From the NCBI GenBank assembly GCA_030704615.1, contig CM060731.1, positions 4,154,001 to 4,218,000 of the forward strand: a stretch of 64,000 nucleotides of DNA, written 5' to 3'. Positions 3,494 to 55,792 of the stretch are shown in pieces (position 1 is the stretch's first letter; every line of letters starts with the position of its first letter). Under the pieces are notes generated by a model that was not told where the DNA came from, ran no database searches, and worked only from the letters and a program-made list of their open reading frames with translations. The DNA comes from Takakia lepidozioides (lineage: Eukaryota; Plantae; Bryophyta). Both the position numbers and the translations under genes were made by a program.

Positions 3494-3618
3494 GCTTTGA
3501 ACGTCACTCCTTCCCTCTTTGCATGCTACGCACAGTGCATTGTCTCTAGTTTTGCACCAGCTGCCAATGTGCTATTTCTATATCTATAGTATACTATAAG
3601 TATCATTTCTAAGTGTCC

Positions 3619-26495: not shown

Positions 26496-29400
26496 ATGGC
26501 ACACCATTCCTGCTGCGGTGTAACATTTTGGCTCTATCTTCTCATAATATTGGGATTGGTGCTATTTGCGGGCTTGATGTCGGGGCTCACATTGGGCCTC
26601 ATGTCTTTGGGACTCGTGGACCTTGAAGTTCTTCGAAAATCAGGCACTGTTTCGGACCGCAAGCATGCTGGTTTGCCTCCTTTTCCAGTCTACTTCTATC
26701 TTATATGCACACCTGCCACTGTTCTTCTTCCACGCTCTTTCTTTGTCTTTTGGCTATGAACAAATATAGCGTGATATAGTGGAGAAAGTTGTTTACGTCA
26801 CTAATTTACCCTTCAAAAAACATTCACTAGGTACCTTAAACCCCAAGAGGCTAGCTGTTCTGCCCCACTTTCTGTCTCTCTTTCGTCATGTCATAGGCAC
26901 ATTATAACGAGGTAATGTGCATGTTGTCTCTTAGTTATAGGAAAGATGAGAAAAACTGGCGGGTTGGTGGGAGTCACTGACTGCATCTTGCATCTTACAG
27001 CTAATTTTACAGGACTTGAATTCCTACTTGACTGGTTGGGGTTGAATTTGTCCAGAAAAAATATTACCCGTGGTGAAGAACCAGCATTTGCTGCTGTGTA
27101 CCCTGTTGATAGGGAATTCGCTCGCCATGGAGGTATGCTGAGCATGAAATTCTAATTGATTTTCGCCTACAAGGGCAGAGAGTAAATTTAACTACAACCT
27201 TGTGTTCTTTATTGCTGCTGAAGTTTCTGTAGAGCATTGTGTACAGTGTGCACAATCAAATTTTGCATGGAAGATCCACATAGATTTAATGGAGTGTAAT
27301 TACTTTTTAGCACCCCTGCACTTGTCGGCAAGTTTGTATTTGAAGCATTTACGCCTTGTGCATAAAGGTTCTTGGTTATTAGCTTTGATCACTTGATGTG
27401 CAGGCACTTCCCATATTTTTGGATTCATTGGTTAATGCTTGGAGTGCTGTCCTCATCTCAGTTACCTTGATTCTCTTGTTTGGAGAGGTAAGTAATGGTC
27501 TCGTTGCTCACAAGTGCTCTTATCATATGAGGCAATATACATTGAAAGCTTGAGAGATAAAGATAACTAAATGAGGGGAATAATAAGTATATAGAGTGTG
27601 TGGTGACTCGATACTGGCTTTTAGTCCGTATACACATCGTCCATGCAAAGAGGTTATGAATGTAAATTTCATTAAAGTTGTTGGCTAAGGTTCGAGATCC
27701 TACTCCTTGGTTGATAGCTTGAACAACCATCCTAATCAGATGGATTAAAAAATATAGCCCTAATTACAATGCACAGTTTAGCCCGTGAAGGGCTTATGCA
27801 GACCTGGGAGAGGGTGGGGAGTCATTGAGGCACAGTAAGTGCCTTAATGATGATATCAGAATTTTGATCTAAGTATGTGTCTAAAGCCTGCAGAATACCG
27901 AAGGTTACATTCCAAGCAGACGACAAGTTTCTATTTTCTAGGAGACACATAGTTGTCTGGCAGTCACTGTGGCAGGACCGTGCTACAGTCCTGAATTAAG
28001 TTTCATCAAATGTCAGTCATCTAGTATGATGCTGCTCTGGACAGGCAACAATGTCTGTCTATTGTTTTGTTGCATAGGTGCTCATTGGTGCGGTAGTATT
28101 CTTGCCTGGTCTAACAAAGCACTTGTGTATGAGTTCAGATCATCCCTCAGGCAGTTTGTTCTCGATATGGCTTGGCTGTTGGGGCAGCCATGACACCAGT
28201 GGTTCGTGTGCTTGTTATACTTTTCTCACCAGTTGCCTATCCTATTAGCATGGTATGACACTTTTACTTTCCGTTCCTATTCCTGCCATTGCAACCCGAT
28301 TTTTTTGCAGTCCAGGGGTTCATTTGTAGTATAGATATTCTTGGAAGTTACTCCATATGCATGCAAACTGCCTGCTTAAGGGATTTGCAAAATGCATCAA
28401 TGCTTGGCTGCAGGTGTAGAAGCATGGTCCTTCCCAATGAAGTACATGCCTCTACAAGCATATTGCATAGTAAACTTTCAGGTAAACTTAGGTCAAAGTT
28501 GCTGATCTGCCTCCAGGCCTCCCTCAAATAAATAGTCCATGATTCATTGAAACTGCACTGAGCAATTGATCTGGATCCCAAAGGGCCTTGTATGCATAGA
28601 CACACATGCCTCTCCACCACTTTACCTTCCAAGCTCTTCTTTTCCATTCTGTCTTTGTTTCTTTATTCCAACATTTTGCTATTGATGGTGCAGCTACTGG
28701 ACAAGATTCTAGGAAGAGGCCATGTGGCACTTTTCCGCCGGGCTGAACTCAAGACACTCGTAAACATGCATGGGAATGAGGTGAGCTCTCTTTCTTGGTG
28801 AGTTGGCTATAATCTGGAAGGTGTCCCTCCTCCAGTGTTTATGAATTCAAAAGTTAGGATGACAATCAACATTACCCAAATCTACACATACCTGTGCTTG
28901 ACTTCAAATCAAACATCAGGGAAAGGAGCGTGGAAAGAGTATTTAGTAAATGACAAAGATAAGGCTGTTAATATTCTCCACTGCAGGGCAGGCTATGAAG
29001 GTTGCTTACATTTCTAAAGTATATTTCTTCATGGTCTTCATCTTGACTGAATGGTAGTCTACAAGAAGCTTCTAGATGTCTAGTGTATCTATAGGTGTGT
29101 AGCAACAAGACTCGTGATGAGGCAATTGAGTGGCTGGTGAAAATTGTAAACGAGGTTACATTTACTAGTCCCACCATGTATCCATTTATGCAGGCTGGTA
29201 AAGGTGGGGAGTTGACGCACGATGAGACGACAATTATTGCTGGGGCTCTGGAGCTGACAGAGAAAACAGCAGCCCAAGCAATGACTCCCATCAGCTCTGT
29301 TTTTTCGTTAGATGTGAATGCGAAACTGGACCTGTATGTACTATGTTCATGTTTCTTGAAGGGTTTGGTTGTCTATAACTGAAGGTCAGGAGATGTTGGG

Positions 29401-32400
29401 TTAAGTTTCATTGTGTTTCCCTGCCCCATTTATTAGTTTATTTCCTCACTGAGTTTAAGCTTTGGAGATGCCATTGGGAACCTTCCCCTTACAGAAGTGT
29501 AGATTTCCATATCCAGAACCAGCCAATTTCGCCCCGGACACAGAATATTTAGTAGCTTGAAATTTTGGCAATGACAACATCACTAGTTTTGCAGTTATCT
29601 AAGTCAGGCCTTTCCAACATATTGTGAAGAATCAAAACTGCACATGTAGGGTAGTATTTAGAGTCTTCCAGTTTTTCCAGCTTGGTGAAAGTGGCCAACT
29701 ATTGTATCAGGGAACCCAAAGGAATGCGGGACCAAAAATCACTCTTCAACAGACATGGAACATTTACATCCAAAAGTTGTGGTGGTCCAAGTCAGCTCCT
29801 TCATCCTGTGACTTTAAAGTGCAAGATGTCATTGTCCATGATCAATGGATCAAGAACACAAGGCTGGAGATCAATAGGTTATCAGTTTTGTTCATGGAAA
29901 GAGTAAACCAATGTGTCACAAGTGTGTGCACAGTTACCTCCATTCTGTTTCCTAATGCGTCTGGATAATTGACATGCCCCATCTTTACCGAAGCTTTCAT
30001 GACCTTGTTGTTCGGGGCATCCCTGTCAGGGCCTCTAGGGTCACAAATGGCATGGCATGTCTGGGAGCTACACAAGTTCCTAGCTGGTGGATAGCAAGGG
30101 ATGAAGCAAGAAGGATCTAATTAGTTCCCCTATTTTGATAAATTCCATATCTGCCACAAACTTGATTTGTGACAGGTTTTCAGCAAACTCATCATATAGG
30201 TACACTGATATCTCTCAATTTATTAGGTCTTACATGGAAGAATCCATCACTTGTGCTTGGCTTCATGCTGGCTTGTAGCTTGTCTTATCTGTGGTCTGTG
30301 TCTCATACCAAACCTATAGGTGTATTATTGTCTGCATGGATAGGTTGGTTTTTGACTCCTGGTGGCGCATGTTTCAGTGAAACCATGAATTTGATAATGG
30401 CGATAGGACACAGCCGGATTCCGGTCTATTCAGAATCTCCAACTAATATAATTGGTCTCGTTCTGGTCAGTGCCTTCTACTCAGCTTTCTTGCAAGTTTT
30501 CAAGTAGATGTAAAACCTGGGTAAGTCTCTTATGGTGGATTGACAGCTTGCAATAGAGATGACGAGCAGTGAGAGTAGAAATTTACCAAATTTGGCAATG
30601 AACAGTTACTACGCACCATAAATGATATTGCAGTTTTCGGCCCATGAAGTTGATGTGATAGCCATTTGCTTAGCAGGATTTTAAAGATGGGAAAATCCTA
30701 CTCCTTGCAAGCTTGTAGAGATAAATATAGTGCTGGTTGCCTTCTGCTGATGGTTGTTAATTTGCCAGGTTGTTGTGTGGTCACTACATTAGGCAAGATT
30801 CAGCTAATTGGTCTGCGCTTATCAGTGGCCTTTCATCTAAGTAAATATCTCAGGGTTTTACCATGTGACAGGTGAAGAATTTACTGACTTTGCGTCCTCA
30901 AGACGAGACACCTGTCAAAAATTGCACAATTCGAAAAATTCCTAGGTATCCATCTCTGGACCCTCCAACTAACTTCAAGCACGTTGAGCATGATGTGGTA
31001 GTATTCCTCCACATTTAATCATCTTACACATTTGCTATTTTCATAATCACCAAGTTGTGTTGGCGACTGGTGGACAGGGTAGCAGAAGCAATGCCTCTCT
31101 ATGACATTTTGAATGATTTTCAGAAGGGGCATAGCCATATGGCTGTGGTTGTCAAGTACAGCAAAGAGAAGGCCGATTCCTTATACGGCAATGGTGATAC
31201 CAAAGGGGATCAAAGACTAAGCTCTAGAAGGCAATCGGCATCCAAGTCCTTGCGTGGTACAAACTCTCTCTGTGCCCAACAGACCTGAATGGACACCAAA
31301 CAGATCAAACCCGGATGTCACTAGGCTGGGGGGCAGGGACTTGACGAGATTGTCAGAGCGTTTATTTTGGTTTTTAGAGCTCGTTAGGAACTTCCTTTTG
31401 GGCCCATGAGGCCCTCCGGGCCATGCTCCAGTGGATGTGCCATTTCTCTTCCTCCATTTCCTTTCCTCCTCTTCTCACAATTGGACATATTACATTTTGC
31501 TCACATTCTGCATACCTCTTTTTGGCTACAGCTGTTGGTGCCTACAAATTCTTGGCACTTGATATTCCAGAAGGAGACGACCGTAAAGATGGAATGACTG
31601 AAAATTATTCACCTCAGAGAAGGCTGCCAGAAATAGGTGTGTTTATTGACAATGGCGGCCCTCTGCCAACTGACATCAAGTCAGGGAAATCAACCATACC
31701 CCTGTCTGTTTCTATACCTGTTGTTCGAATAAACGAGGATGGAGAGGGTGGCTTGTTACACAGTCAGCGCAGTAAGAAGTGGGAACATACTGGAACTGGC
31801 AATGTGTTAGAAATAAGGGAGGAATCACTGCCAAGCTTTCCGAATGATGAGGAGGTTGTGGGTATAATAACCATGGAGGACCTAATCGAGGAGCTCTTAC
31901 AGGTTGGTTCTCTCCCACTGTGCTCTTTACCGGTTGTCTCTGTGAATGTGAGGAAACAAGAGTGAAGTCCTGGACTTTCATGGAGCTCTCACTATCTCCT
32001 GGAACTGGGCTCGGTTTTTGTACCCACAGCCTGCATGATTCTCTCTCTACTGATTTAATTGAAGTGGCACAATTTACCTTGACTCCAGCTGACGTTTGAC
32101 TAAACTCCCCGTGAAATTGTCAATGAATCTAAAAAGTCCCAGGGACACTAGGTCTGGTCTTCACCATGCATTTTTACAAATGTGTCCTTTCAAAATGTGG
32201 TCTTTTCTTCACCATGCATTTTACAAATGTGTCATTTCAAAATAGAAGTTAGTTGAGGACTGCAGGGTTCATGTGAGTGCATGATTGATGGCTTCTCTGT
32301 TTTTTGTAGGCATCTTGTCCAGTGGAAGTGTTTGGTGCATGTTTGCTTCTCAAATTTATGCTGTGAATTATCAAATAGGGATAATACCAGAGTTGGTCAA

Positions 32401-34353
32401 GACCCTAATTGGCCACGTGTGCTTGGTTACCTTTTTTTAATTTTCACCTATTTGCTTACAATACTTTTATCCTCCATGCTAGGAATTCTACTTATGGTTG
32501 CTTGTATCAGGAGGAAATTTTGGATGAGACGGATGAGTACATTGATGTTCACAACAAGTAAGTTTCAAGTCCTCTTTTTAAGATCGTCAGTCCAATCACT
32601 TTAGGATCCTCTCTACATACAGCATATCAGAGGAAAGTAAAGTGGACCTTACTTTAAAGGAAACTTGAAGTTCTGAAGACAAACATTTTCAAGCTCTGGA
32701 ATCTAGCTCACGGAAACTTGCTACATGTAATTGATGGTATTCACATCGTCGCAAGACGAGAGAAAGTGAACACTGATGGCATCAAATTCCAGCCATACAT
32801 TACAAGTGTCATTTTGGCTTTGGTGTAGATCAAATCATAGAGGAAGGCACCACCAAAACAGAATTTAAGAAAGTATTTGTTTCTACATCAGTATGTTGGT
32901 GTTTGATTTGCTTACATACCGGATAATGTACATGCTAATCAAGTTCAGCATTTGACATTAGGTGGCGGCATTTCCACAAGTCATTTTCAGCTGTTGGATA
33001 TCTACCAGCCTTAGCACTTGTAGTCTCGTCGGTCTTTTTGTCTTCCCCACCTTCGTTGGTCTATAAGAAAGCCCTAGAACCTAACTGTCCTGTAATCTTA
33101 ACCATCTGTAGTTGTTGCTCCCGTCAAAATTGGGAGGTAATAATAGTGTTAATCATTGTTCAGTCAGTCTTGATCAATTCGTCCGATGATGTGAAAATCC
33201 GCATTCCTGTTAACTTTGATATCTGTTGGCATACTAACAGGATTAGGGTGAATTTGTTACCACCTGGGGGAAGGTCACCATTGTCTCCGAGAAAACATCC
33301 TCTTTCACCAGCAGCTGCATCGCCACTGAGATTGAATGTCCTAGCACCTCTACAAGAATCACCATCCGCTTCTCCCCACCTCACCTCTTCAGGTTCTACC
33401 GGGACTTCCGTGCCCTCTACCTCATCACCCTCCTTAACTGGGCCTTCAGACGCCCACAGCCAGCCACATCAAAATATTTCTCAGAATGTAAGTGATGCTT
33501 TATGCCGACAACACCTTCCTTAACATCAAAAGCTGTAGTACTCTGTGTGTATAGTTTTGGTCGGACGGAAGGGAGGTTGGAGGGGTGGGTACACAGTCAG
33601 TTGAATGAAGTTCTAGATTTGACCTTATTGGCTCTATTATGTAAGTATTTGAGAATTCTAGACGTGACACTCTTTAAGTTGATACCCGTTTAAATCTCTG
33701 CTCATAAACTATGGGCATTTGCTTGTGTCATTGAAACTGATGTTAAGAATGTGGAAAGCAATGCATAGATTTGCAAAAGCTAGGGAAAGGAATGGTATTT
33801 TGAGAGATGTTGCTAACCAAAGACTAAGTTGAAGAAATCCTTCTAAATTTGCTAAAGATAGAAACAACTTGACAAACCCTTGTGGATATTTAGGTTCCTG
33901 CTTTACCACCTCTCTTCGATGTGGGCATGACTCTGTGTATGATTTGACAGGCAGGATTTGGAGGTGAGAGTGGGAGTATAGGATATAGTTGAAATATGCT
34001 GGTAGTGGGAGGCCTAACATTTCCCTGCTTGTGATGTGTATGATAACTGCAGGGCATTGTCCTGAAGCATACTGATTTGAAGGAGCCTCCGGATAGATAA
34101 CACATACACACCATACAGATGTTGCATTCATAATCCTTGAAATAGCTTAGAAATACTCATACTGTTCCAAGTACTGTTGTTCCAACAAGGCCAGGCAAGG
34201 TTGATGATGTGAATAACATATAAACTATGGACGAATTGAATATGGTTAACTCGTTTTGCTATCCAGAAGTTTTTCAATAGTAAGAAGCCCTTTGAGTTGA
34301 AGAGGCTCAATATGTTGCAGATGCTATGTCTTGTCTTTCATGGTCCTACCTGA
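26496..34353 (+). CDS. DUF21 + CBS-domain (CNNM/CorC-like, plant MGR/CBSDUF-type) membrane protein, 12-13 exons
   Basis: Exons with GT-AG borders at about 26496-26670, 27056-27132, 27404-27487, 28139-28252, 28694-28780, 29194-29333, 30378-30465, 30872-30945, 31078-31256, 31532-31902, 32511-32557 and 33241-33487. Possible last exon 34321-34353; otherwise the stop is at 33523. Motifs [90 protein letters not shown]. Confidence 0.93.
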
Positions 34354-35101: not shown

Positions 35102-35862
35102 ATGCCGCAGATGAAAGTAGTGGCTAGGGAGAGAACAAAAGAAAAATGCAAGACCAATGAGAAATATCTGGAAGCTAGTGTTTGTTACCATTGGTGTCGG
35201 TGCAGCAGATATAGACATCCCATGCTTACAGAAGATGGAAAATTTCCGTGTCGGCATCTCCGGATTGTTTGCATTGGATTGTTTGCATTGGAGAAGGATG
35301 ACACTTTCACCTTCACTTGCAAATGGTTTGCACGGTATATGTTTCCAGCTTGTTGATGTTAAACAAGCTCATCAAAAAACAACTTGGATGGGACAGTGAT
35401 CTCAAAGTTGTGTTTCCGGGACATGTAGTACATTGCAAAGCGCTTCGTGGAAAAGGTCTTTACACTTTTATTGGGATGGTTGGTTACTGTTTGAAGAATA
35501 TCGACAAACCTGGTTTCAAATTTGTGCATCGCAATGTTAGTTCCGAACAGATGAAGAGTGGGCTTGATGAGTATGTCAAGTAACACGCATCATCAATTAA
35601 AAACCAAATGTGTCTCACACATCAAAATTTACTGGAGCGCGCACAAATGTGGTCAAAGCACAAAATGGGAAGGCAATTTGGTACCGCCTTGCCCAGTGTT
35701 CTCTTCAACATGTTGAAATCAGGTCAATTTTATCCTACATCATCTTGGGTTGTTTCGTTTAAAAATACCGGCATGGATTTAAATAGAGCTCAATCGATCT
35801 TAAAGGCAATGATCGAGCCGCATGTGTTAGAAATGGTAGACGTAGTACGGATTGTTTTTTAA
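35102..35862 (+). pseudogene. Replitron-type Rep/HUH (Y1) transposase, disrupted
   Basis: GLFALE..HLHLQMV (HUH), LNKLIKKQLGW, TFIGMVGYCLK (YxxK), HRNVS, MLKSGQFYPTSSWV, GMDLNRA. A 14-bp tandem duplication GGATTGTTTGCATT (35262-35289) and a stop at 35581-35583 break the frame. No helicase domain. Confidence 0.8.
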
Positions 35863-36092
35863 TGTGATATATCTAGTTCCCGTTTGTGGGTATTGTATTG
35901 TACTGAGCTTGCAAAGAAGGCTACTGTTGAATCGGGGCTGTCCGGTTCTACAGATTCAGTCAAGAGTCTTCCTACTCCAATGCATACTTTGGTTGCTCAA
36001 CAGCTTCCGTACATCCCCGTCTTTGGTAGAACTCATCGAGACTTGTCGGAATGAGCATGCATTTAAAATCTGTACATTTGCTTCCTTCTGTG

Positions 36093-36181: not shown

Positions 36182-36532
36182 ATAAGAAAGAACTAAACTC
36201 AAATAACAAGATAAACACAAAACACAACACCATCACTCTTTAAAATAATAGTCGAGCCACCAGAGGCACCCCAAGCTATAGGGACTCCACCCCACAACAA
36301 CCTATCATCCCTTCATAAGCACACTCAGGTTCTGAACGGTGAAGGAGCTCGGTCGTGCAGGCTCAACTCGAGAGAGATGAGCCGCACGACTGACGCTCTC
36401 GTGAAGATAAGACGGTTCAGGTGTCAAACTAAACTTGACACCTGACTTAACACTAGAACTAAATCCAAGTGTTAAATACAAATAACTAGTTTTATTCTAG
36501 TTAGTTTCACACTGTGTTTATTTAACTTGACA
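36181..36532. repeat. Repeat X (LTR-like, about 350 bp), 3' copy
   Basis: Matches 48175-48523 with about 7 substitutions and one 3-bp indel. Confidence 0.95.
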
Positions 36533-36534
36533 GC

Positions 36535-36623
36535 TGTCGTGCGCATACATATCGCTACACAACTACATCGCTGTTCAAACCACACCACGCATATATGCAC
36601 AATAAAGTAGTCTGCCACAATCG
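36535..36623. repeat. Repeat Y, internal copy, preceded on the minus strand by purine tract AGGGGGG (36624-36630)
   Basis: Joined to X through the palindrome GACAGCTGTC (36529-36538). Confidence 0.95.
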
Positions 36624-36879
36624 CCCCCCTAGCTGGTGGATAGGTCCCTCTAACTCCAGATAGCTACAAGATGTAATAGCCACAGCCGTACTAAGTCATC
36701 TATCACTGTCCCTATTGTACTCAAACTCTATAGACCAAGAGGCCGGGTACAAGAGTAGCCCCATCGTTAGTCGCCGTCTTGCAATCTGTGAACTTGAGCC
36801 AGGATCTCGTGTGTTCAAGGTCTCCTAGTAGCTTGGCCTTGCGTTTCTTGTTAGCCTTCCATGGTTGTATCCACTCCCA

Positions 36880-38200
36880 CTATCCAATGCAATGTGGACA
36901 TAACCAATCCCCATCCGGAACCATCTCAAGAGGTGGAGTCAAGCATCCCATATGCCAACCTCTCGAGCATCGATCACACACCAGCATGGTGGCTGCCCCT
37001 CTAGCAGACCCACACAACATGCACCTCAAACTTGCAGATACCACTGCCAGGTTTGGGTCAATCCTACCATCGACATTCGGAAGGTGACATGACGCACAAT
37101 TACGCACATGGTCCTTCCAAGTTATGCCATCCCGACCCTCCAAGATCAAGACACCTGAAGACAAGACCTCTCGAACCCTCAAAATAACACGTCCTGCAGT
37201 CACATCCAAGGTCGTAGGAACAGTCTGCTGCAGATAGACATAGTCGCCAGGGTTGAATCTCCGAACCCCAGGACGATAACCCCCACCACGTATGGTAGCA
37301 TACCTCAACGTATCACGATGTTGTGCAATGACAAGGTTCTCGAAAAGCCATGGGCATGACTTTCTTGAACAACTCTGCATACTGCTCACATGCACGTGCC
37401 CACACGTCCGGATTGTCAAGGTTAAGAACTGTAGCAGCTTCTCTGTGAATGGATGTAGGCAAATCCGACTCTCGGCCAAAGAGAAGAAAGTATGGTGAGA
37501 AGGAGGCAAGTGATGCTTGCTTGCTGAACCTGTAGCCCATGGCTAACCAGGGTAACTGAAGGTCCCAATCTCCTAGGTATCCCTTCTGCAAGCCATACTT
37601 GCGCAAACCCCTCTTTAATGTCTGAACAACCCTCTCTGCCAAGCCATCGGCCACAGGATGATCCCGAGAAGTGGTACGGTGGTCTACCAAGGCCTTGTCA
37701 CACAAAGCCTGAAACTCCCCCAAGAACTCTCTCCCTTGGTCCGTGAGTACCTCAGCTGGAGCACCGAATCGGCTAAGCACACAATCCAAGAATGCATACG
37801 CAGCTCCCTCACTAGCCTTATCTGGCAATGGAACCAACTCGATCCACTTGGAGAAGTGTTCCACCATCACCAACACGTACTTGTTGTGGCGCATGGTCAG
37901 TGGCAACGGCCCTGCGAAGTCAAGACTTCACCTATAGCCCAATCCCATGATCGAAAGAGGGTGCAATTGTGGAGTAAGGGCGTTGAATGAAGCACGCACC
38001 CTGTCACATACCATGCACCTAGCCACAAATTGTTGCACCTCTGTGTGCATACCACGCCACCAATACTGCCCCTGCAGTAGACTATGAGTGTGTCGCACCC
38101 CAAAATGCCCCAACTCCTCATGGGCATGCCGCACTAACCGTGCCCGCTGTGTTGGGTGAGGCACAATCCTCACTCGACCATCCTCCCACACTCGGAGCAG
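36880..38200 (-). pseudogene. Integrase (H2C2 + rve core) with C-terminal PHD finger
   Basis: HAHEELGHFG..CMVC; VMVEHFSKWIELVPL, EVLTDQGREF, GLAERVVQTLK; PHD CMLC..MLVCDRCSRGWHMGCLTPPLEMVPDGDWLCPHC at about 36883-37023. Confidence 0.92.
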
Positions 38201-38549: not shown

Positions 38550-39890
38550 TTGACCAAACCTGGTCGATGCACAACCTGAAAGTCATACTCTTGAAGGATG
38601 AGTGCCCACCGTGCAAGCTTCCCCGTAAGCTTGTCTGACTCCATCAACCACTTGAGTGGTTGGTGATCCGTGACAAGGGTGAAGAGATTGTTGTATAGAT
38701 AGTCACCTAAAGTGTGCCACGGCCCACACTGCAGCTAAGCATTCTCCCTCATATGAGCTATACTTAGACTCTGCAGCGTTGTTCGAGCGGCTAGCATAAG
38801 CCACTACGAACTCTCTTCCCTCATCATCCACCTGTGTGAGCACCGCCCCAAGCCCCAGCATGCTCCAATCTGTATGCAGCTGAAAAGGACGCCCCCTGAT
38901 AGGTCGTCTCAACATGGGTGCCGAGGTCAACCTCGCCTTGAGCTCTTGAAAAGCTTGTTCTTGCTCATCTTCCCACTGCCACTCCTGGTCCACCTTGGTC
39001 AGCTTGGTTAGAGCCTTTGCAATGGCACTAAATCCCTTAAAAAACCGTCTATAATAGTTTGCTAACCCCATGAAAGCTCGAACTCGGCTCACATCCATGG
39101 GGCGTGGAATCTGTGCAATGGACTCTACCTTACTCTACTGTACCCCCAATCCTCCAGGATATATCATGTGACCCAGATACTCAATCTGGTTGTGGAAAAA
39201 CTTGCACTTTCCCGGATGTAACTTCAATCCGTGCGTCCTCAAGCGCTCAAATACCACCTGAAGGTGTCTCTCATGCTCCTCCACCGTAGCACTAAAGATG
39301 ATGATGTCATCTATGTAGCACCGAGCAAACTTCACCCCTGCTAGAATCCTGTCCATGACTATTTGAAACTCTGAAGGAGCATTTTTAAGCCCAAATGGTA
39401 AGAACCGCCACTGGTATAGGCAATCCTTCCCGTGCTCATTGATCCCCCAAAATGCCGTCTTCTGCTTATCCGCCTCCTTGATCGGCAACTGGTGATATCC
39501 GGATCGTAAATCCAAAGTGCTAAAGACCTTGGCATGCCCAATGGCATCAAAGATCTCCTCTGGTGTCGGCATAGCATACCTATCGGACTTGGTCTGACGA
39601 TTTACAGGCCGGTAATCACCGCACATACGTCTCTCCGTCCAATTGTCATAGACATCATTCTTGGCTGGCATCACAGTGGCTGAAGCATACTCTCCCCCAT
39701 ATAGCTCCACCAAACCCGCCTCCCAAAGGTCCTGAGTTCTCATCTGAATCAAGGACCTCTCCATGTCACTGTATCTATAGGGTCTCCAAAAGATTGGCGT
39801 GTCAGTAGCCAATTCAATGCGAATCTCTTGACCCTTTAGTGCTCCTAAGTCCTTCAAACTGAAGGCAAAGCAGTTCGTGTAAGCCCTCAA
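38550..39890 (-). pseudogene. Reverse transcriptase and RNase H (gypsy type)
   Basis: RMCGDYRPVN, FSTLDLRSGYHQL, LPFGLKNAP, YIDDIIIFS, YLGH; FMGLANYYRRF, LHTDWSMLGLGAVL, YSSYEGECLAAVWAV, ARWALILQEYDF. Confidence 0.95.
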
Positions 39891-40289
39891 GAACCGCCGT
39901 ATACGTCGTCTCTCTCCTCCGGTGACTATAGGTCCAACATCAGGCTCCCAGTTGTCCTCCGTGACTGCAACCTTGAGTCCAGCAGGCTTAGAGGTAGAAG
40001 ACGCGTCTCGTGGTTGCTATGCTGCAACCTCTTGAGCAGTGATCATTGCCTCCTCTATCAGTGACAATGTCTCACCCTGCCCCATCATCCCATCCTTGAG
40101 GACCTCCTCAACCCGAGAAAAATCCCCAACCTGATCCATCACCGCCGCCTTGGCTGCCAACTCATTCTGAACCTCGAGCACCTCCCACGTGTGCCATGGA
40201 TGCGGCCTGCACCTCGTGGTCCTCACCTGCTCGCCCCCCACTCGCTGCCTGTACCGTCTCGGTAGGCAGGGAGACCATGAAGGGAAGTG

Positions 40290-41290
40290 TACTCCGTACT
40301 CTGCGCTGCTCAGCCATAGCCAAGCTGATAATCCAGGTCAAGCAATTGTGATCCATTGCTTGCCCCAACACCTGACGACGTGATGCCTCAGAAAGAGATG
40401 GCACCGCCGTGGTACCAGTGGTAAAACCCATCGCCCGCTCGCGCTCGTCAGCATTGGGCTCCACTAATTGTTGCAATTGGCTATCCCACAAGAGGTCAGG
40501 TCCACTATCCCGAAAAATATGGGGTCTTGGGAAGCTGAGCAATGTAGGTAATGTTGCTCGTGGTTGACCCACCCTGTTGACCAGTGCCAAAGGCAAACGG
40601 TCATCGTGTCTCACACGTTGAGACTGCCTCCCTGTGTCCAAAATGCTATCCACTGTGAGGTGTGCTGGCCGCTACACCCCATCAAATGCACGTTTGAGCA
40701 GTGCGGGTGGCATCAAGTTAGTCCACTAGCCGTGGACGATGAGTCCGTGACCCCACTGTAGCTGCATCCAGCAACACTGCTGACCCAAGCCACGACCGGA
40801 CTTGATGCACACTGGCCATCATTCTGGCCCGAGAATCACCCATCAGTGGCACATTCTCCAAGATGTATGCTGGAGATACAGCTTGAGGAAGCTGCAAGTG
40901 GCGCAAAACCCGCACCATCTCCCAAAACAGACCCGTCCTCGAGTCTCGCAATCCATTGTCATGCCCGGCTGATGAATGCCCGTGGCAGGGCCAACCTGCC
41001 ACTACCAGATCAATGGAGCCAACCTGCTCCAAATCCTGCGCCCCCAGCAACGAAATGTCTGCTAGCAAAGCTTGTTGGTATCCACGAACTGCAGACACTG
41101 GCAACAAATCAGGGTATTGCTGTACCAACTGAGCAACATGGCATAGTGAGACGCGTCGTGCACTCTCATCCCTCTCCACATACAGGTAACGTCGAACTCG
41201 TACACCTGCCTGCAGCACTGCAGTCAATCCAGTGCTGATCCCACCAAACAAGTCGAGAAGACATATGCCTTCATCCGGGCACTGCCACAC
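40290..41290 (-). pseudogene. C5-cytosine DNA methyltransferase domain within pol (one frameshift near 40720)
   Basis: Motif I LLDLFGGISTG, II YLYVERD, III ADI, IV IDLVVAGWPC.GHS.AG, GLRDSRTGLFWE, VI YILENV, VIII HRPRL, IX ERERAMGF, X RRQVLGQAMD. Same frame as the protease ORF, separated by a single TAG. Confidence 0.9.
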
Positions 41291-41317
41291 AAGAGGTGTG
41301 GTATCCAATGGCGACAA

Positions 41318-42550
41318 CTAAGGTGGTCCTGGTGCAATCACCGCACTCTCCTCTTCTCCTGACGGTACGAAGGCCTCTACCCAGGCTTGTTGCACCCGTT
41401 TATCAGCAGCATGCTGCAAATCCTTGCTCGTACCCCACAATGGAGTGTGAGCAACCATGGCAGACAACTCCGCCGTACCATGCATGTCATCCTGCTCTGC
41501 TGAAGGTGGTACATCCTCTGCATGGGCATTGCCTTCCAGCAACTCTCCAGGCCAACTAACTGCAGCTGTAAAGGCGGCTAGTGTTGGCATCTTGCCCCGC
41601 TGGGCAGCCGCAATATCCCCAATGAATGTCACAGGGAGCTGTGCACGACGACCATCCCCTGACTGCCATCCAGGCCTGTAGGATGCTGACTCTTCCCAAA
41701 AGTCCAGGGTGAAGCCCATGGGATATAACACTGCCCCACCAACGAGGACATCGTAAGAGACCGCGTCTGTCACAATGACCTTGGCTCGCATCACTGAGCC
41801 ATCTATAGGATGATCCGGCTGCAGTCTAATGGCCAACTCACGCCATGTCATGCCCCGAGCCTGCTCTGATCCTCCCAGAGATGTCTGTATCTGGAAAGGA
41901 CAAGGCTCCATATCCGCCTCCATGAGGCCCAAACCTGCAATAGCAGCTCTGCCCAACATCAGTGGCTGAGCTCCCGAGTCTAACAAGACCCGCAGTGGCT
42001 GGTGCTTTTTGCCTGCCAGTCCACTCAAAGAGAAAATGTCATCCTGGTTGTCTAACAATACAACTCCAGGTGTCACCATGGCGCGCTCAAAGGCTGGCCT
42101 AGCTGGCAGCTCCGTCAACCTGGCAGCTGCAGCTTGCCATGGCACAGCCGTGGCAGTCTTGACCCTCAAATCTGAGGATCCCTCTGCCGCTACACCTTCC
42201 AGTAACTCCGCAGAAGATGAAGTGACCTCCCCACTCTCACAGAGTGTTGCTGCTAGTCTGAACACTGCAGCTGGTCTTACCCCCGGCGTCGCAATCATGG
42301 TTGTCGAGAACAGTGGGGCTTGACACACAGAGGTGGCTACCCCCAATAACACACCGGCTGCACTAGCCTTGGTAGCAGGTGTCAGTGATGCACGTATAGC
42401 TCTCCCCAATGGCATAGTAACCTCCGCCTCGGTAACAGTCGGGCGAGAACTAGGTGCCATGGATGGCGTCGACACTGTCTCCACCAATGTGAATGACTGA
42501 GGAAGCCTCGCTTGACGGCTTGCCTCCCCACGCTGTGGATCCAATTCCAC
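41318..42550 (-). pseudogene. Retropepsin-type aspartic protease region
   Basis: RVLLDSGAQ catalytic motif and downstream YDVLVG motif. Confidence 0.85.
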
Positions 42551-42586
42551 CTCTGCACCTCATGGCTCAGGAACTCGTGCTGCTCC

Positions 42587-44813
42587 TCAAGTCACGGCTG
42601 CAGCAGACTCTACCTGCTCTAGTGATAGTGTTGCTCCGCACATGAATCCCATGCCTCCCATATCTCCTCCCTCAGGAGCAGGAGGGGGACCATCCCGCCT
42701 GGGAGCCGGTACCACCTGAGCTGTAGCCATGGCAGCGAGCCTCTGCTCTAGCTGCTGAAGCCGGTTGGCCATGCCTTGGTCAATACCCTGACCTCCGCGG
42801 TCTTGGCTATGTTGAGCTTGCCCTTGGCCTGCACCTCGTGCCTGGCCACCTCGTCCTCTCTGGGCTGGTCCACCTCGCCCCCGGCCACCATTGTTTCCTT
42901 GGAACTGGCCTGGGCGCAACTCAGGATGCAAGTCATAACACTGGGCATCTCCATGCCCATACTTGCCACAATGCCCACACTGCAACTGTGCAGGCTGTGC
43001 TTGTGCCGACCTTTTGCCACTCTCTGGGCAATCTCTCTTGACATGGGGTCATCCACATGTCCAACATATCACCCCTGGTTGCTGTTGGCTTGCAAAAGAT
43101 GCTACTGGCCTCTGCACTTGAGGTCCCCTGTAAGCTCCATGAAATTTGGGTTGGGAAACCTTGCCCCCCTGACCACGCTATTGGGCAGTCCCTTGTGCCT
43201 GTGGGCTGGCAGCTGCGCCTTGTGCAGGCATGTCTTTGCCAAATCCAATGGTAACAACTCGCTCCTCCACCATGTTGAGCTCAATCCGCTCAGCCAACAG
43301 AAACACATCTGCTAATGTGGGTTTGGCTGCTTGTAACAGGGTTGCATCCCGCACCCTTCTCCTGAGCTCCTTGTCCAAAATTCCATACCACAACTGGATT
43401 GCCTGAGCTTCAGTAACCCCTTGGGTCACACTTATCAAGCGCCTCATACGAGTGTACGCCTCTCGCAGGCTCTCACTGGGTTTGCGCTAGAAGTCTTGCA
43501 AACTTCGCAGCTTCTCTGTCCGTACACCTTGGTAGTTCCTCCACAACTCCTGGAAGAACTCTACCACCGGGCTGAATCTAGGCACATATGTTGTAGTCGT
43601 GGGATAATGAGTAGTAGGACCTTCTGCAGAAGTACCGGCACTACTAGTGCTAGCCGTGGGAGGTATTAGTGTTGATGCCGCTACTGGTCGTGTTGTTCCT
43701 CGAGTAATGGAGACGTAGTCAGGTGACCAATACATCCTCCACTCTTCAATTTTTGCTTCATGTCCTCGCCTGAACTTGTGGTAATCGTCCATAGGCGGGC
43801 CTTCCAAATGCTGGAACAATCCCAATTCATAAATGATGAATGACCAAGACCCCGATGTCACATCGTTCTGAGAAGCCACTACGCGTGCTCACAGTATACG
43901 AAGGCCTTGCCGTGTCAGGATTTCCATTCCCACGTCCCGTCATGTCCGACGCAGCACTTGCATCCTTGTCTCTGTTAGGTGGAGGCAGCACGTATTAAAA
44001 TATCTATTCCCCCAAGGCCACATTTTGTTTACCTCTTTTTGTGAAAGCCATGTCAGCAAATGTGCTGCCGAGTCATGGGTGCAATGAATGCGCAATGGTT
44101 CATGGAGTCGTTGAGTCGACTACATATTCACTTTAATGAATAAATATCTTTATACCATTAATCGAATTAGGAAAGAAAATTTGTAGTCGCATGTGCAGTA
44201 ATTACAACCACTTGTAATTTTGGCTTTTTCAAATTTTATGTATTTACGCAATTCGTAAAATAGCCCGGAATTCTGCTACGACTCCGGAGTCGTTGACCCC
44301 ACTTCTGTCCGCCGTCTGAAATGCCCCCGTGGGCCCACATTGTCTGTTTCGACTCTCCAGTAGTCCAGTTTACTACCAAGTGGTTCCCGGAGTGGTCGCG
44401 GACATGCAGTCGAATCGGAAAATACACGAATGCTTCTAGTGCTTCCACGCCATGAATGGGGTGAACAGCTGTGGATTGCGCATCTGCTGCAAATCACACC
44501 AGCTGTCGAACTCCTAGATAAAGTCATCCAACTCGATTGTGCCCACAGCTCCAGAGTACCTACGAGGCCCCTTGGTAGCTCCATACATCTCCTCCATGTC
44601 GTCCCACAACAATGGCGAATGAAACTGCACACCTGTTGATAAAGCCTCCGAGTCTGTGTCTGACTCTGCACTTGTTGAGGGTGGAGGTGAAGGTGGTCTG
44701 AAACGAACACCTCGTTTGGTGAACCCACTCTCACTGCTACTGCCTGTAGCCGTACTCCCCTCAAAACCCTTGGGTAACTCCGTGATGACACTCACAACCC
44801 GCACCTCCCCCAC
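42587..44813 (-). pseudogene. gag with CCHC zinc knuckle, interrupted by a ~620-bp insertion
   Basis: CGHCGKYGHGDAQC knuckle followed by an RGG-rich tail. Helical gag-like segments (…PFMAWK | LFQHLEGPP…) lie on either side of the insert. Confidence 0.7.
43820..44439 (+). mobile_element. Possible non-autonomous Helitron inserted in gag
   Basis: A|TC...CTAG|T borders with no TSD. A 3' hairpin is not convincing. Confidence 0.35.
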
Positions 44814-45994: not shown

Positions 45995-46849
45995 ACAAGG
46001 AGGACATCCACAGATTTATCTCTCATGTAGACCACAACAGGTTCTAGAAACAGAATTGTGGATCTTTCATAGCACACTCACACTCAAAAAATTCCATAGA
46101 TTTTTAGCAGAGTCCAAAAAACTAAAACCTAGATAGGTAGATAGATAGATAGGTAAATTTCCCCTTTCTGTAGGTTCCTGCGCAAGTTTTGGGTCAAACG
46201 GCCTTGGTAGGCCAGAGTTATGGCCAAACAGGCTCTATCTAATTTAAATTAGATCAAAGAACGAATTTCTTTTAATTTTTCATACCCAAAACGTTCTCGC
46301 CATTAAAAATTGTTCCCACGTTTTTTGCGATTCACTGTAGGTTCCCATCACGTTCAAAATACCGTGCCCTGTGAGTGCCCGAAATGGTGGAATTGAAGTC
46401 TACCAACAGAGGTTGTTGTGCAGGGATCCTCCTTCGTAGGCACACGCTTGGCAGCTGCTGCACGTCCTGCACCCCGGGTCTGCCATGCCTCTGGCGTCAG
46501 GGCTGCTCTTTCACTCTCCAGCAGCTCGCTCCAGAAAAGGGTTGGACCCTAAGTTCTTGAGGAATCAGAGATATGCCAAGAAACATAATCGTGTGGGCGG
46601 CGACAATAGTGAAGTTGATGCTGCTGAAGAAATGGAATGAGAGATGTGTAGATGGAGCAATCGATGAGTGCCCAGGTTGCAGCGGGAGTCTCTTGCTTGT
46701 CTCTATGCAAGGTGGGGCACTGATGAAGGTCTACAGCTACGCTCTAAAACGTTTTCGATCTGCACTCCATCAGGCTCCTTGTTGGCAATCGAGGTACTGG
46801 TTGCGGTCTATGTAGGTCAGATGCTGTCAAGAGGGCCTTTGAGCTGTTG

Positions 46850-47905
46850 CAAGTCTCCACTTGTGAAGGATCCTCAATGCGCTCAACTCATTCCTGATTG
46901 CGTTCTTCACCTCTTTCATGGGGATCCTACCATGTTCGAGTCCTATTGGCTGGCCCAGCCCCAGGCAACCACTGTAATCCCAGCGTGGCAAGGCATGAGC
47001 TATTTTGCTCACAAGCACAACGCCTTCATGTTTGTGGACCACCATTTGGACCAGACAATCCGCGCCTTTCACAGCTTTGTTGAGAATGTTGTCGCCGAGA
47101 GCCGCTACATTGTACTTGGAACTGGCTCGACACACTTGTTCCAAGCTTCAATTTACGCCCTATCCTCGCCCCAGTCGTCCACTCCAACGAGCATCATCTC
47201 GGCTACCCCTTATTATTCGCCGTATCCAGACTTGACAAACTTCCTCAAATCCGGGGTATTCAAATGGGCAGGAGATGCACACCAGTTTCAACAGAACTCT
47301 TCGCAAGATGCTTACATTGAGATAGTGACATCACCCAATAATCCAGATGGAACCATCCGGCATGCTGTGGTCAATGGCAGTGGATCAACAGCTCATGATC
47401 TCGCCTACTACTGGCCACATTACACTCCAATCACCTCCGCTGCTGACTTTCCCGTGATGCTCTTCACTTTCTCCAAAATCACAGGCCATGCTAACACTCG
47501 ACTCGGTTGGGCGGTTGTGGAAGATGAGCGCGATGCCATCAAATGGCGGAGTTTGTTTGATTGAACACACTCGGTGTATCCCAGGATGCACAAGCCTGGG
47601 CAACCACCTTACTCCGGACAATCATGACTGGCTACGCGCAACCGGCTGTCAAATACGGGGGACTGATGGACGCGGCGAAGCAGCCCTTCTTCCATTATGG
47701 CCACGCGGTGATGGAGGAGAGATGGAAGAAGCTGCAGCAGAAGTTGGAGGGCAGCACGCGCTTCGCTTTGCCTGATTATGACCCCTTACACTGTTCCTTC
47801 TTGGGAAAGATGTTTCGGCCCAACCTAGCTTTTGTATGGCTGCGTTGTAAGGAGGAAGAAGACTGTCAGGAATTGCTTCGCCAACACCGCATTGTATCCC
47901 GTGCA
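46850..47905 (+). pseudogene. TAR: Intronless tryptophan aminotransferase-related (TAA1/TAR, alliinase family) copy captured in the retrotransposon; frameshifted and C-terminally truncated
   Basis: HGDPTMFESYW, YIVLGTGSTHLFQA, PYYSPY, IEIVTSPNNPDG, HDLAYYWPHYTPIT, MLFTFSKITGHANTRLGWA (PLP lysine), NTLGVSQDAQ, AFVWLRC. Similarity ends after RIVSR. Confidence 0.9.
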
Positions 47906-48157
47906 AACCCAGATTCCAGTGAGCTCAAGTCACCCTTAATTTTGATGGCATTGCTCCCCTCTGGCAGGCGCATAGATTACAAAACTGCTACACCTGCTTA
48001 CTCATCCCCTGCCTTCATTGCTTGCTGCATCAGTATTGATCCCCTGCACATCTTTCTAACTAATGATTACCTGAACACAGATAATCATTTCTCTCACTTT
48101 CAAAACAAAAACCACAAGTGCTAAAACTAAACTCACCTCTGGCACTCACATATGCAA

Positions 48158-48173
48158 GCTCATCTCTCTCGAG
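48158..48173 (-). promoter_or_regulatory. Self-complementary primer-binding site next to the 5' X repeat
   Basis: 48158-48174 (GCTCATCTCTCTCGAGT) is the perfect reverse complement of 48357-48373 inside X. No TGG-type tRNA PBS is present. Confidence 0.7.
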
Positions 48174-48523
48174 TGATAAGAAAGAACTAAACTCAAATAA
48201 CAAGAGAAACACAAAACACAACACCATCACTCTTTAAAATAATAGTCGAGCCAGGGGCACCCCAAGCTATGGGGACTCCACCCCACAACAACCTATCCTC
48301 CCTTCATAAGCACACTCAGGTTCTGAACGGTGAAGGAGCTCGGTCGTGCAGGCTCAACTCGAGAGAGATGAGCCGCACGACTGACGCTCTCGTGAAGATA
48401 AGACGGTTCAGGTGTCAAACTAAACTTGACACCTGACTTAACACTTGAACTAAATCCAAGTGTTAAATACAAATAACTAGCTTTATTCTAGTTAGTTTCA
48501 CACTGAGTTTATTTAACTTGACA
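48174..48523 (-). repeat. Repeat X (LTR-like), 5' copy; reads TGTCAAG...CTTATCA on the minus strand
   Basis: Direct repeat of 36181-36532 with TG...CA ends. Confidence 0.95.
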
Positions 48524-48616
48524 CGTGCTTTTATGCTATTGTAACTTTCGAATATCTATATTTGTAAATAAAGTTTCGACCCATCAAGGATTAGATCAAA
48601 GTGTCAATAAATGCAT

Positions 48617-52889: not shown

Positions 52890-53567
52890 ATGGGGATATG
52901 GAACATACAACACCACTAGTAATACACGAACTAGGACTTCGCGTTGCTCCGCACTACTAGCGACGAGATCTGAGAACTATGTTCAATTTTTCACAAAAAA
53001 GGGGTGGGTCATCCCCACGGTGTTACATTCAGAGATCCCGTGTTTTGTTTTTTTCTGGAAGAAAAATGGCGGATCTGCATTTCAACATTCAATTTTCACA
53101 AGCCACATCAATCAATAACAACATACCCAAATACCCTTACATTCACTGTATGAACTTTCAAGCATCCACCATGGGATTGGATCTTGGTGGGTTAAGGCTA
53201 GCTTTTGACAATATTCATGCAAGTTCATCAAGGGCTCCATCCAAAGCCACACCACGAGAAACAAACAAACATGTCCAAATTTAAGATGCTGAACAAACTT
53301 GTGCACAAGGCTGCCCCTCTCATCAAGCTCATTAAAATTCGTATTCACTTCCATCTTCAAGCTTTGGAGAAGCTCCACCACCCAAACCCAAAATTAGGAC
53401 AGCACCAGAATCAGTAAAACATCACCCCTTCAGTCAAGTGCAATTGTGGGCTGATTTCCCACCTATGCCGGGTAGACCCCACTATCAGGAAATGGTGGAT
53501 GGTCTGAGTAGCTACACAGATCAATGAATGAAGCAAGACACTAGCATCTTTCCAAGAAAACATCCTT

Positions 53568-54863
53568 TCACCAGTAATCACCACAAGAACAAATCCCATC
53601 TTCAAAGTGGTGGAAAGTAGTTAGCGTCCCATACAACAATTGCTCGGCCAACAATCTTTGAGATGAATTTGGTGGAGGTGTGGTAGTCTCCACACACTCG
53701 AAGATTCTTGATGAGTCGTGTTGATCAGCCCAAAACCGATGGCCAACTTCTCACTGTGGTGGCAAACAGAAAATTCATTTCCTCCACATCATGCAGTAAA
53801 AAACGTGTGTCAGGCATATACCCCGCCTCCATCTTCTCCCCAGACAATCTTCTCAGCTCAGACAATCTTCTCACCTTTGCAGTATCATCCCACCTGCCAG
53901 CTGCAGCATAGATATTTGATATAGCACCACATAAGTCGCGACATCCTGTTCATCCCACTTGATGATATATGTTGCCACACATTCAGCCATCTCCACATTG
54001 CCATGGATTATGCAGGCACCAAGCACAGCCTTCCACACCACAACATCTGGATTGATTGGCATTTTATTAATTAGATCCACTGCCTCATCCAGTTGTCCCG
54101 CACGTCCAGAAGGTCCACCATGCAGCCAAAGTGTTTTACTGTCAGATTGAATTGATACCATGATCTTGAATCAGGAATCGAAGTAGCGTCTACCTTCATT
54201 CAGAAGGCCAGTGTGGCGCATGCTTTTCCAGGGCTGCCAGGCTTGCACACGAACTACAAATGCACAGAAACTTGATGTGGTCGGGCTTCACCCCTTCCCC
54301 CATCATTTGATCACAGGTCTCCAAAGCCTCCCTACCACGTCCCTGCTGTGGATATGACACCACATCTCGTTCAGCCATAGTGTTGAAAACTCCCTTCGCA
54401 TCCTTAATGCACCCACGCTTGGTCAATCCTGCCAACATTATATTCCACGTGATCAAAGATTGTTGAACACTTGGTGAGCATCCATGATTCTCCTGCACTT
54501 AACATACATGTTGACAAGGGTGTTGAGTAGAAAAACATTTGGCGTGAATCCACTTTGGATAATGTGAGTGTGCACCTGTTTTCCAGCTTCAAGGCCTTTC
54601 ATCTTGATGCACTTATGCAAGAGACAGACATACGTATCTGAATCTGCTTCAAAATGCTCTGAATCTGCTGAAATGCCTCCTTGGTTTAAAGTCTGTAGAG
54701 CCTCTTTCAGTCTGCCTGCCTCACAAAGCACCTTCACATGCCCAGAGGTGCCAGAAGAGGCATTGTGGACTCCCTCTCTTGATCCTCTTCCAGAGGCTCT
54801 GGTCATGGTTGAGGCGCCTGATTTTATCAACTGTGCCCCTCTTGGATGAATCTGGACCCACAC
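53568..54863 (-). pseudogene. Fragmentary PLS-class PPR-E-DYW (RNA-editing factor) pseudogene
   Basis: [92 protein letters not shown]. Many internal deletions. Confidence 0.88.
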
Positions 54864-55693
54864 TCTATCCCTTCTCCTTCAGCTATCCATGCATCTGCAC
54901 AAAGCATGCATTCATCTTTTCCCTTGCTGCTAGCAGCTGACAAATGATAACCTAGGAAACACCCAATCACACTAGTTCCTATGCTGAATTGCGTCTGCTA
55001 CTCTCTGTCATCTAACATGGATTCAATTTTTTGCCTCGGTTGTCCCACCATTGACTGGGGTCAACAAAGTATTCATTCCACACCTTCTCTCTGTTAATTG
55101 TTTTTGGATACTTTCCTATTATCACATTGGCAGTATCATGTCAAAGTCACTCCAAACTAGATTCACTCAACCAGCTAACTTGCAGAATTCAACATGGAAA
55201 TTTAGGGCCGACTCTGACAAGAGAGAAAAACAGGATGCAATGTGTTGAAGAAGGTGCCTTCATTAACAATGCCTTGTTCTATCATTTGTGCCGCTGCCGC
55301 TGCTGTTTCCAGTTGACCATCTACCCAACAATATTTGACAGCCACAAAAGCTAATTCATCAATTGTATAGTGGGAAAATAGACTCGTGATCTTGCAAGAC
55401 CTTGTCCATGTACAAATATCATAGAGTGTCTACTGCAGCCCCCTGTTCTGAGAGACATTCTCTCCTGCGTGAAATCAGGGACTATCACACAGCGGGATGG
55501 ATCAACAAATAGGACAATTGCTTATGCCTCACAAACAACATGCATTGAAATTCCAGTGTCAACCTGATATAGATGGACCTACAGAGACAATTTGCTGCTC
55601 GCTTCATTTGTTGCTGCAAAAAGCAGTCAAGATGACAAGAGATTTTGGGAACCAGAAAACAATCTCAACAAGTCAATTGTGGTCATAACATAC

Positions 55694-55792
55694 ATTTTTC
55701 TAGTCTCTGCCATATTTCCGAAATGCTTGATAGAAGAGCTCCAGGTCCTCTTTGTTCCAGGGAGGTCCAAGCATGTCCGACAATTTGCGCTT
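55694..55792 (-). pseudogene. Captured ALWAYS EARLY (ALY/LIN-9) N-terminal SANT/Myb exon
   Basis: [31 protein letters not shown], flanked by AG acceptor and GT donor. The stop falls at the conserved Trp. Confidence 0.75.

Follow-up and report, generated by a model that had tools for sequence, protein, structure and literature searches.

The minus strand of the 64,000-nucleotide stretch of DNA analyzed here, referred to below as the window, carries a decayed 12.4-kb Ty3/gypsy retrotransposon that encodes a DNMT3-like cytosine methyltransferase (DNMT), and this copy is a dead member of an old and very abundant Ty3/gypsy family. We consider it reasonably probable that this family, from a likely bryophyte host, makes its methyltransferase at the level of Gag, carries it in the particle, and likely uses it to methylate newly synthesized cDNA. 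The features that point to this reading are a conserved stop codon between the methyltransferase and reverse transcriptase, a catalytic domain maintained between lineages, and an arrangement of terminal repeats that would permit the integrase to open a circular cDNA at an encoded junction.

The coding region of the element follows the Ty3/gypsy order of Gag, protease (PR), reverse transcriptase (RT), RNase H (RH) and integrase (IN), with an integrase of the DDE type. All of these domains are read from the minus strand. The gag gene with its zinc-knuckle region (42560-44800, located by tblastn to the intact relative P0122) contains several stops and is split by an insertion of 619-623 bp, itself repetitive (43822-44442, no strand assigned), whose joints skip 619 or 623 bases in X1, X3 and X5. 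An aspartic protease (41700-42050, DSG near 41980; weak Pfam matches, E 0.02) precedes the C5 methyltransferase domain with motifs I-X (40330-41263), and this in turn is followed by reverse transcriptase and RNase H (38580-40016; RVT_1 E 6e-34, RT_RNaseH_2 E 1.5e-30; stop at 39134-39132, frameshift near 38703), the H2C2 and rve core of the integrase (37050-38200; stop at 37930-37928, frameshift near 37343), and a PHD finger at the integrase C-terminus (36883-37030; E 8e-11). In minus-strand translation the copy is interrupted by six stops in the gag-PR-DNMT frame, by the gag insertion, and by breaks in RT, RNase H and integrase. Pfam searches of the integrase C-terminus recover the PHD finger and no chromodomain, the latter being the chromovirus trait among the plant gypsy clades of REXdb (Tcn1, Phygy, Selgy, chromoviruses). 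The gag insertion ends in TTCTAGTG, with a 16-bp internal palindrome. [quoted passage not shown]

The original prediction held that the main C5 methyltransferase motifs lie between the aspartic protease and RT, and all of those it named are present there on the minus strand: LFGGISTG (~41251-41228), GWPC (40996-40985), ENV (40858), RPR (40738), ERAMGF (~40440) and RRQVLGQ (~40380). Its further claim, that the motifs share the protease frame apart from one TAG, is correct for motifs I-VIII, which lie behind the TAG at 41320-41318, but not for motifs IX-X, which occupy another frame after a frameshift near 40726; in relatives these two motifs are in frame. A second frameshift, near 40234, follows them. 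The Pfam search that had been proposed as a check matched the ORF at 40718-41317 to PF00145 with E 3.1e-13, the score being 50.3 bits where the cut-off is 22. Motifs I, IV (PC), VI (ENV), VIII (RxR), IX and X occur in the linear, unrearranged order of DNMT3-type enzymes, and the window copy retains all eight motif positions that were checked (F, E, C, E, R, R, E, G). A profile built from 59 family sequences, compared with solved proteins, matched DNMT3A at E 3e-27, DRM at 8e-16, HhaI at 6e-11 and DNMT2 at 1e-5; for a natural relative from Calypogeia fissa, DNMT3A was also the first match among solved proteins. Furthermore, the AlphaFold model of the natural relative P0083 (pLDDT 92.3) matched DNMT3A in Foldseek with E 1.4e-19 and a TM score of 0.83 by target length, and the top rows listed were all DNMT3. 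Across the 59-sequence alignment (A3), residues C140, E183 and R225 hardly vary. The profile search and the fold both place the enzyme nearer to DNMT3 than to DRM, to DNMT2 or to the bacterial enzymes, in keeping with the DNMT3-like character first proposed for it. The domain is not a chance resemblance, because homologue searches returned 81 and 39 proteins and because DNMT3A/B are the closest solved proteins by both sequence and fold.

The position of the enzyme within the coding region differs from that originally proposed, which was within the pol polyprotein. In intact relatives from several lineages, Gag, protease and DNMT form single ORFs of ~1,280-1,330 residues that then terminate at a stop. 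Of 32 proteins containing motif X, 21 lack RT and terminate 65-108 residues beyond that motif; the rest comprise four that end earlier, three distant relatives, and four that run into RT. These last four are all NCBI gene models, in which splicing has probably bypassed the stop. All 48 loci that retain the whole DNMT-RT linker (39 distinct insertions) have a stop at one and the same codon (TAG in 33, TAA in 15), while stops at other codons have a mean frequency of 1.0-1.5% and a maximum of 32%. CAA follows the stop in 45 of the 48, and in 45 the stop is in the RT frame. In the window this position reads TAG CAA CCA (40019-40011, minus strand), also in the RT frame and with no nearby ATG. Because the conserved stop separates Gag-PR-DNMT from RT-RH-IN-PHD, the enzyme is the C-terminal part of a Gag-PR-DNMT ORF1 rather than a component of pol. 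The stop context in the window agrees with CAR-YYA, described as a signal essential for readthrough in tobacco mosaic virus (TMV; PMC2754532). Most loci read CAA CCC ATG behind the stop, and the full CAR-YYA occurs in only 1 of 48; an ATG lies three codons behind the stop in 46 of 48, and reinitiation there would fit equally well. A search for a readthrough-stimulating hairpin behind the stop found no stable one (z -0.06). With readthrough and reinitiation alike, and by analogy with gag-pol stops, the DNMT would be made along with Gag, and RT-RH-IN-PHD less often.

Relatives of the element are numerous. Named homologues come from Marchantia polymorpha, with a large number of gene models, and from M. 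paleacea, Calypogeia fissa and Sphagnum. A metagenome scan yielded 110 confirmed loci, of which 80 were kept, representing 62 distinct insertions and drawn mostly from one host group; these loci were collected with DNMT patterns, so that retention of motifs II and IV among them is biased and sister elements lacking the DNMT could not appear. The order gag-CCHC-PR-DNMT-RT-RH-IN-PHD holds wherever the 80 loci extend, 24 of them reaching the PHD finger. From sequencing runs of the likely host organism, 86,197 contigs were aligned to the window, and their summed depth, which is not a copy number, was 0.77-0.97 million in the DNMT bins and 0.63-1.06 million in the RT bins, versus ~64 in unique flanking sequence. 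A single 5-kb contig from a second organism spans the interval from the polypurine tract to the DNMT. In a quick tree assembled without bootstrap or host DNMT3, the window DNMT joins the bryophyte sequences, to which it is 62-72% identical, in a clade with a support of 100, and the element-borne enzymes appear to form a clade. Within the quick tree, again without bootstrap and with few taxa, Sphagnum sequences group with those of Marchantia (91) inside the liverwort sequences; this placement, together with identities of 62-72% across bryophytes, may reflect horizontal transfer or old paralogy.

Comparison of the window DNMT with the loci gave dN 0.275 and dS ~2.0, and the ratio of transversions at 0-fold to those at 4-fold sites was 0.22 for DNMT, 0.19 for gag, 0.25 for protease, 0.12 for RT and 0.11 for integrase. 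This comparison of dN/dS across copies, one of the checks first suggested, indicates that the DNMT domain is under long-term purifying selection between lineages. Among themselves, peat-moss-type copies decay neutrally in all domains, with a transversion ratio of ~1. The median pairwise dN/dS among loci is 0.63 for DNMT versus 0.39 for RT; dN/dS among peat-moss-type copies is uninformative because these copies decayed neutrally after a burst. The purifying selection and the abundance of the family weigh against the possibility that a fragment of a host DNMT3 was captured once, or neutrally, and plays no part in replication. The window copy itself might invite this explanation, since it is broken throughout and carries other captured host pieces, including a TAR-like gene. 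It is nonetheless largely refuted, and we regard it as highly improbable: the DNMT has RT-like depth in the likely host, occurs in named liverworts and a moss and in 80 loci, evolves under purifying selection between lineages, and belongs to an apparent clade of element-borne enzymes. The one-off insertion that the original prediction had specified as its own undoing is thus not what was found.

A search with the family profile extended the distribution further, returning 847 clusters at E<1e-10. The best 144 new clusters include many gypsy polyproteins in which the DNMT lies between RNase H and an integrase with PHD finger, 28 of them complete for RT-RH-MT-IN-PHD. Representatives of this RNase H-DNMT-integrase type include P0289, P0310 and P0359, and one cluster is named as a pol protein of the chlorophyte Scenedesmus sp. 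PABB004; among 10 representatives looked up, this was the one cluster named, and no named Klebsormidium sequence was present. In the DNMT tree, the RNase H-DNMT-integrase type occupies one side (SH-aLRT 92) and is separate from the PR-DNMT type, in a quick analysis without bootstrap that left out rows with <230 aligned residues or lacking a second domain. Because 847 clusters were recovered, many of which place the DNMT behind RNase H and ahead of the integrase, the DNMT module is far more widespread than published.

The ends of the element are organized as split direct repeats. On the minus strand, repeat A1 (48523-48174; 350 bp, TG...CA, the 5' end of the element) is followed by the coding region, the polypurine tract (36624-36633, conserved in the loci), repeat B1 (36623-36535; 89 bp, ending in GACA), the dinucleotide GC, repeat A2 (36532-36180) and repeat B2 (36181-36093), which forms the 3' end and also terminates in GACA. 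A1 and A2 differ at 8 of 350 aligned bases, and B1 is 98.9% identical to B2. The TG...CA ends, the polypurine tract and a target duplication within the 4-6 bp range are those of a Ty3/gypsy element; the two identical LTRs expected around the coding region are absent, and the A-coding-B-A-B arrangement is found instead. A1 and A2 were considered as ordinary LTRs and rejected, as the polypurine tract abuts B and not A. The same A-coding-B-A-B layout is present in five loci (L047, L067, L071, L072, L076), a 3' B-A-B in two (L016, L043), and A-coding-B without repeats in four (L024, L036, L049, L055). In the window, CACG on the element strand (48524-48527) pairs with CACA (36089-36092) as a target duplication with one transition at a CpG. 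A 4-bp duplication flanks 9 of the 11 elements for which both ends are available (exact in 6 and with one transition in 3, but not at L036 and L067), and the duplications show no CG preference. Because of these duplications, the element is inserted by a DDE integrase, with the start of A (TGTC) and the end of B (GACA) as its termini. A DIRS-type tyrosine recombinase (YR) element with a nested gypsy element was also considered and dismissed, the recombinase being absent and the rve integrase and 4-bp duplications present. At two loci (L017:6332-6564 and L018:6342-6574), an inverted B repeat with a piece of pre-polypurine sequence stands in the place of A1, directly before the 5' UTR; these two sites probably represent a single insertion that entered the assembly twice.

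Where B1 joins A2, the sequence is a GACA-GC-TGTC palindrome (36528-36539), which has the form of an end-to-end att junction. Foamy-virus integrase is reported to cleave palindromic two-LTR junctions (PMC1180852), and the use of such a junction as an integrase substrate may be shared by the window element; the foamy-virus junction forms on a circle, whereas that of the window element is encoded inside the integrated element. The 5' end contains a second suggestive feature. The 17 bases directly behind A1 (48158-48174, the predicted primer-binding site) complement A position 151-167 (48357-48373, the predicted self-primer) without a mismatch. At 14 of 24 loci a different sequence occupies this site and pairs best at A 163-167, with 10 exceeding the control maximum of 11/15 and 3 pairing perfectly. 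Pairing of the predicted self-primer is thus seen for two unrelated sequences, in the same part of A. Pairing with A1 fits self-priming of the kind described for Tf1 and Tj1 (PMC4600332).

Between A1 and gag, the window copy carries passenger DNA, antisense to the element (46200-48170, plus strand; Alliinase_C E 4e-81 and 4e-22). It contains an intronless TAA1/TAR-like pseudogene with an Alliinase_C domain (46871-48124, plus strand), an inverted 5' piece of this gene (46732-46858), and a fragment at ~46530-46600 (plus strand) that reads KGLDPKFLRNQRYAKKHN and is presumably ribosomal protein L29-like. The passenger DNA is absent from most copies, its summed depth being 265-2,400 versus 150,000-735,000 in neighboring element bins. 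Contig depth over the passenger, roughly 5 times that of a single copy, points to a small non-autonomous subfamily, and the window copy probably derives from such a subfamily carrying captured host mRNA pieces. Among named matches the TAR-like sequence is nearest to that of the moss Ceratodon; in a TAR tree that has a single named moss but lacks liverworts, hornworts and ferns, it groups with Ceratodon to the exclusion of Selaginella and seed plants (99), though on a long path. A1 and A2 are just 2.3% apart, whereas breaks abound in the coding region.

Beyond the element, the window contains a decayed Replitron (35302-35862, plus strand; HUH endonuclease PF21859 E 8e-11, PF21860 E 3e-7), and the gypsy element, which starts ~230 bases behind it, was probably inserted into this Replitron. 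Decayed PPR genes, in tandem copies rich in repeats, lie at 52900-62300 (minus strand; PPR_2 E 1e-17), a CACTA-like transposon region at 700-7100 with an NIF-phosphatase-like ORF (5866-7080, E 2e-16), a copia element bearing LTR-like repeats at 20330-24991, and an intron-containing CNNM/CBS-domain host gene at 26343-32600. The PPR copies, the CNNM-type gene, the Replitron and the TAA1/TAR-like gene agree with the land-plant setting that was expected to extend the known range of retrotransposon-borne methyltransferases, and the host is likely to be a bryophyte.

These features can be combined into a proposed replication cycle. RT-RH-IN-PHD would be produced in smaller amounts, through stop-codon readthrough or, in peat-moss-type copies, through reinitiation at the ATG three codons on. 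The Gag-fused DNMT would be packed into the particle and freed there by the protease, reverse transcription would be primed by the 5' end of the RNA itself, and the freed enzyme would methylate cytosines of the cDNA, probably at CG. Standard reverse transcription would give an LTR of the form B-GC-A, and circularization would join A to B. The integrase would then open the circular cDNA at the encoded GACA-GC-TGTC (B-GC-A) junction, with a 4-bp duplication as the result; a two-LTR circle would generate A-coding-B-A-B and a one-LTR circle A-coding-B, although the latter form could stem from B1-B2 recombination instead. The mirror form A-B-A-coding-B, which a simple two-LTR-circle model predicts too, was seen at 0 of 26 5' ends. 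The PHD finger of the integrase would guide the cDNA to chromatin, and new copies would arrive already methylated.

The nearest solved relatives of the PHD finger include CHD4, PHF12, KDM5A/B, ATXR5 and PHF21A. Several of these (KDM5 PHD1, PHF21A, CHD4) read H3K4 in its unmethylated state, as does the ADD domain of animal DNMT3. A chromatin-reading integrase could mean that the DNMT acts on chromosomal DNA, at the target site or on the element's own LTRs, during or after integration, and so damps transcription of the element or its competitors. Expression at the level of Gag would supply far more enzyme than one cDNA needs, and self-limitation has been raised as a possibility for such elements (PMC5890265). 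However, the DNMT is fused to Gag-PR, across the stop from the integrase and its PHD finger, the target duplications lack a CG preference, and the Klebsormidium methylome is described in that paper as not unusual, and we judge chromosomal action to be rather unlikely. The CpG observed/expected ratio within the 64-kb window is 0.54 for the element, 0.56 for CACTA and 0.39 for copia, and thus carries no special methylation imprint. The lack of extra CpG loss would also suit a domain kept for a non-catalytic task in the particle (binding of RNA or cDNA, or scaffolding) or one that methylates RNA, as would a stoichiometry at the level of a structural protein and the inactivity in yeast of KnitGypsy-Dnmt3, the closest described enzyme, a result that its authors consider inconclusive (PMC5890265). 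We find this explanation improbable, as the catalytic PC, ENV and RxR are kept across bryophyte and algal relatives, and the fold is DNMT3A-like, with DNMT2 matched only at E 1e-5. For the preferred reading, methylation of cDNA within the particle, methylation at CG has a precedent in the related SymbioDIRS-Dnmt3 enzymes of dinoflagellates, which methylate CG in yeast, while the Klebsormidium enzyme did not (PMC5890265). CpG depletion gives no direct sign of such methylation in the window element.

A bolder and more speculative reading, which we offer tentatively, joins all of these elements. It holds that an unrecognized clade of green-lineage gypsy elements is abundant in liverworts and mosses, including Marchantia gene models; that its particle is built from Gag-PR-DNMT3, with RT and integrase rationed by a leaky stop; that it primes its own reverse transcription and opens a circle at an encoded att junction; that its copies are born methylated and its DNMT3 contributes to the bryophyte methylome; and that many algal relatives carry the DNMT3 at another place, flanked by RNase H and integrase. 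These findings broaden the range of gypsy elements that bear DNMT3 from one charophyte alga to land plants. Among the latter is the genetic model Marchantia, in which the role of transposon-encoded methyltransferases can be tested. As a caution, many bryophyte gene models annotated as DNA methyltransferases (e.g. Mp_4g09160, Mp_8g15430, Mp_8g17980) are transposon ORFs. The conserved stop predicts an enzyme at the level of Gag, with RT and integrase rarer, and the encoded att-like junction and target duplications would provide a first mechanism by which an element with a DDE integrase keeps DIRS-like split repeats.

In the literature searched, mostly papers free of subscription, we found no DNMT-bearing retrotransposon from a land plant (including the portions consulted of PMC12344493, PMC11982613, PMC6453930, PMC12885004, PMC9516144, PMC10952607 and PMC8566409), nor the conserved stop, the self-primer or the att-like junction described above. 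The main text of the REXdb paper mentions neither a methyltransferase nor a homeodomain. The survey of de Mendoza et al. 2018 (PMC5890265) included Physcomitrella and Selaginella, and its eight streptophyte rows contain no liverwort or peat moss. In the available text of a recent preprint, "streptophytes (Gypsy-DNMT3)" are cited only as previously described (bioRxiv 10.64898/2026.05.21.726589).

Several known systems share parts of this organization. The EpiLTRs/DAM-LTRs of that preprint are LTR retrotransposons with a methyltransferase and a chromatin reader; their DNMT is described as DNMT4-related and accompanied by DAM and a chromodomain, in Cymbomonas and Euglena. As far as they are described, Tf1/Sushi-type elements, plant Tcn1 and Tj1 of Schizosaccharomyces japonicus have ordinary LTRs, with a chromodomain in Tcn1 and no DNMT (PMC6317226, PMC4600332); compared by description, the stop in the Tf1/Tcn1/Tj1 set follows Gag, whereas that of the window family follows PR-DNMT. 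SymbioDIRS-Dnmt3 shares a Dnmt3-type domain within a retrotransposon and split direct repeats (PMC5890265) but integrates by a tyrosine recombinase, in contrast to the DDE integrase and target duplications of the window element; the combination of tyrosine recombinase and absent target duplication that defines DIRS/PAT elements is not found here. The closest counterpart is KnitGypsy-Dnmt3 of Klebsormidium nitens, which is described as combining gypsy domains, Dnmt3 and DIRS-like repeats (PMC5890265). Its repeats are drawn as in DIRS (Fig. 4c legend), that is, as A-coding-B-A-B (Fig. 1e). The window element has the same combination, and the link to this work that was made at the outset stands: shared are the gypsy domain set, an unrearranged DNMT3-type catalytic domain, DIRS-like repeats and purifying selection on the DNMT. 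The two differ in host, an alga in one case and a land plant in the other, and apparently in the place of the enzyme, which the paper's text assigns to "the Pol polyprotein ORF" and which in the window family ends the Gag-PR ORF. The PHD finger, 4-bp duplications, predicted self-priming and att-like junction, unmentioned in the KnitGypsy-Dnmt3 text consulted, are features of the window family.
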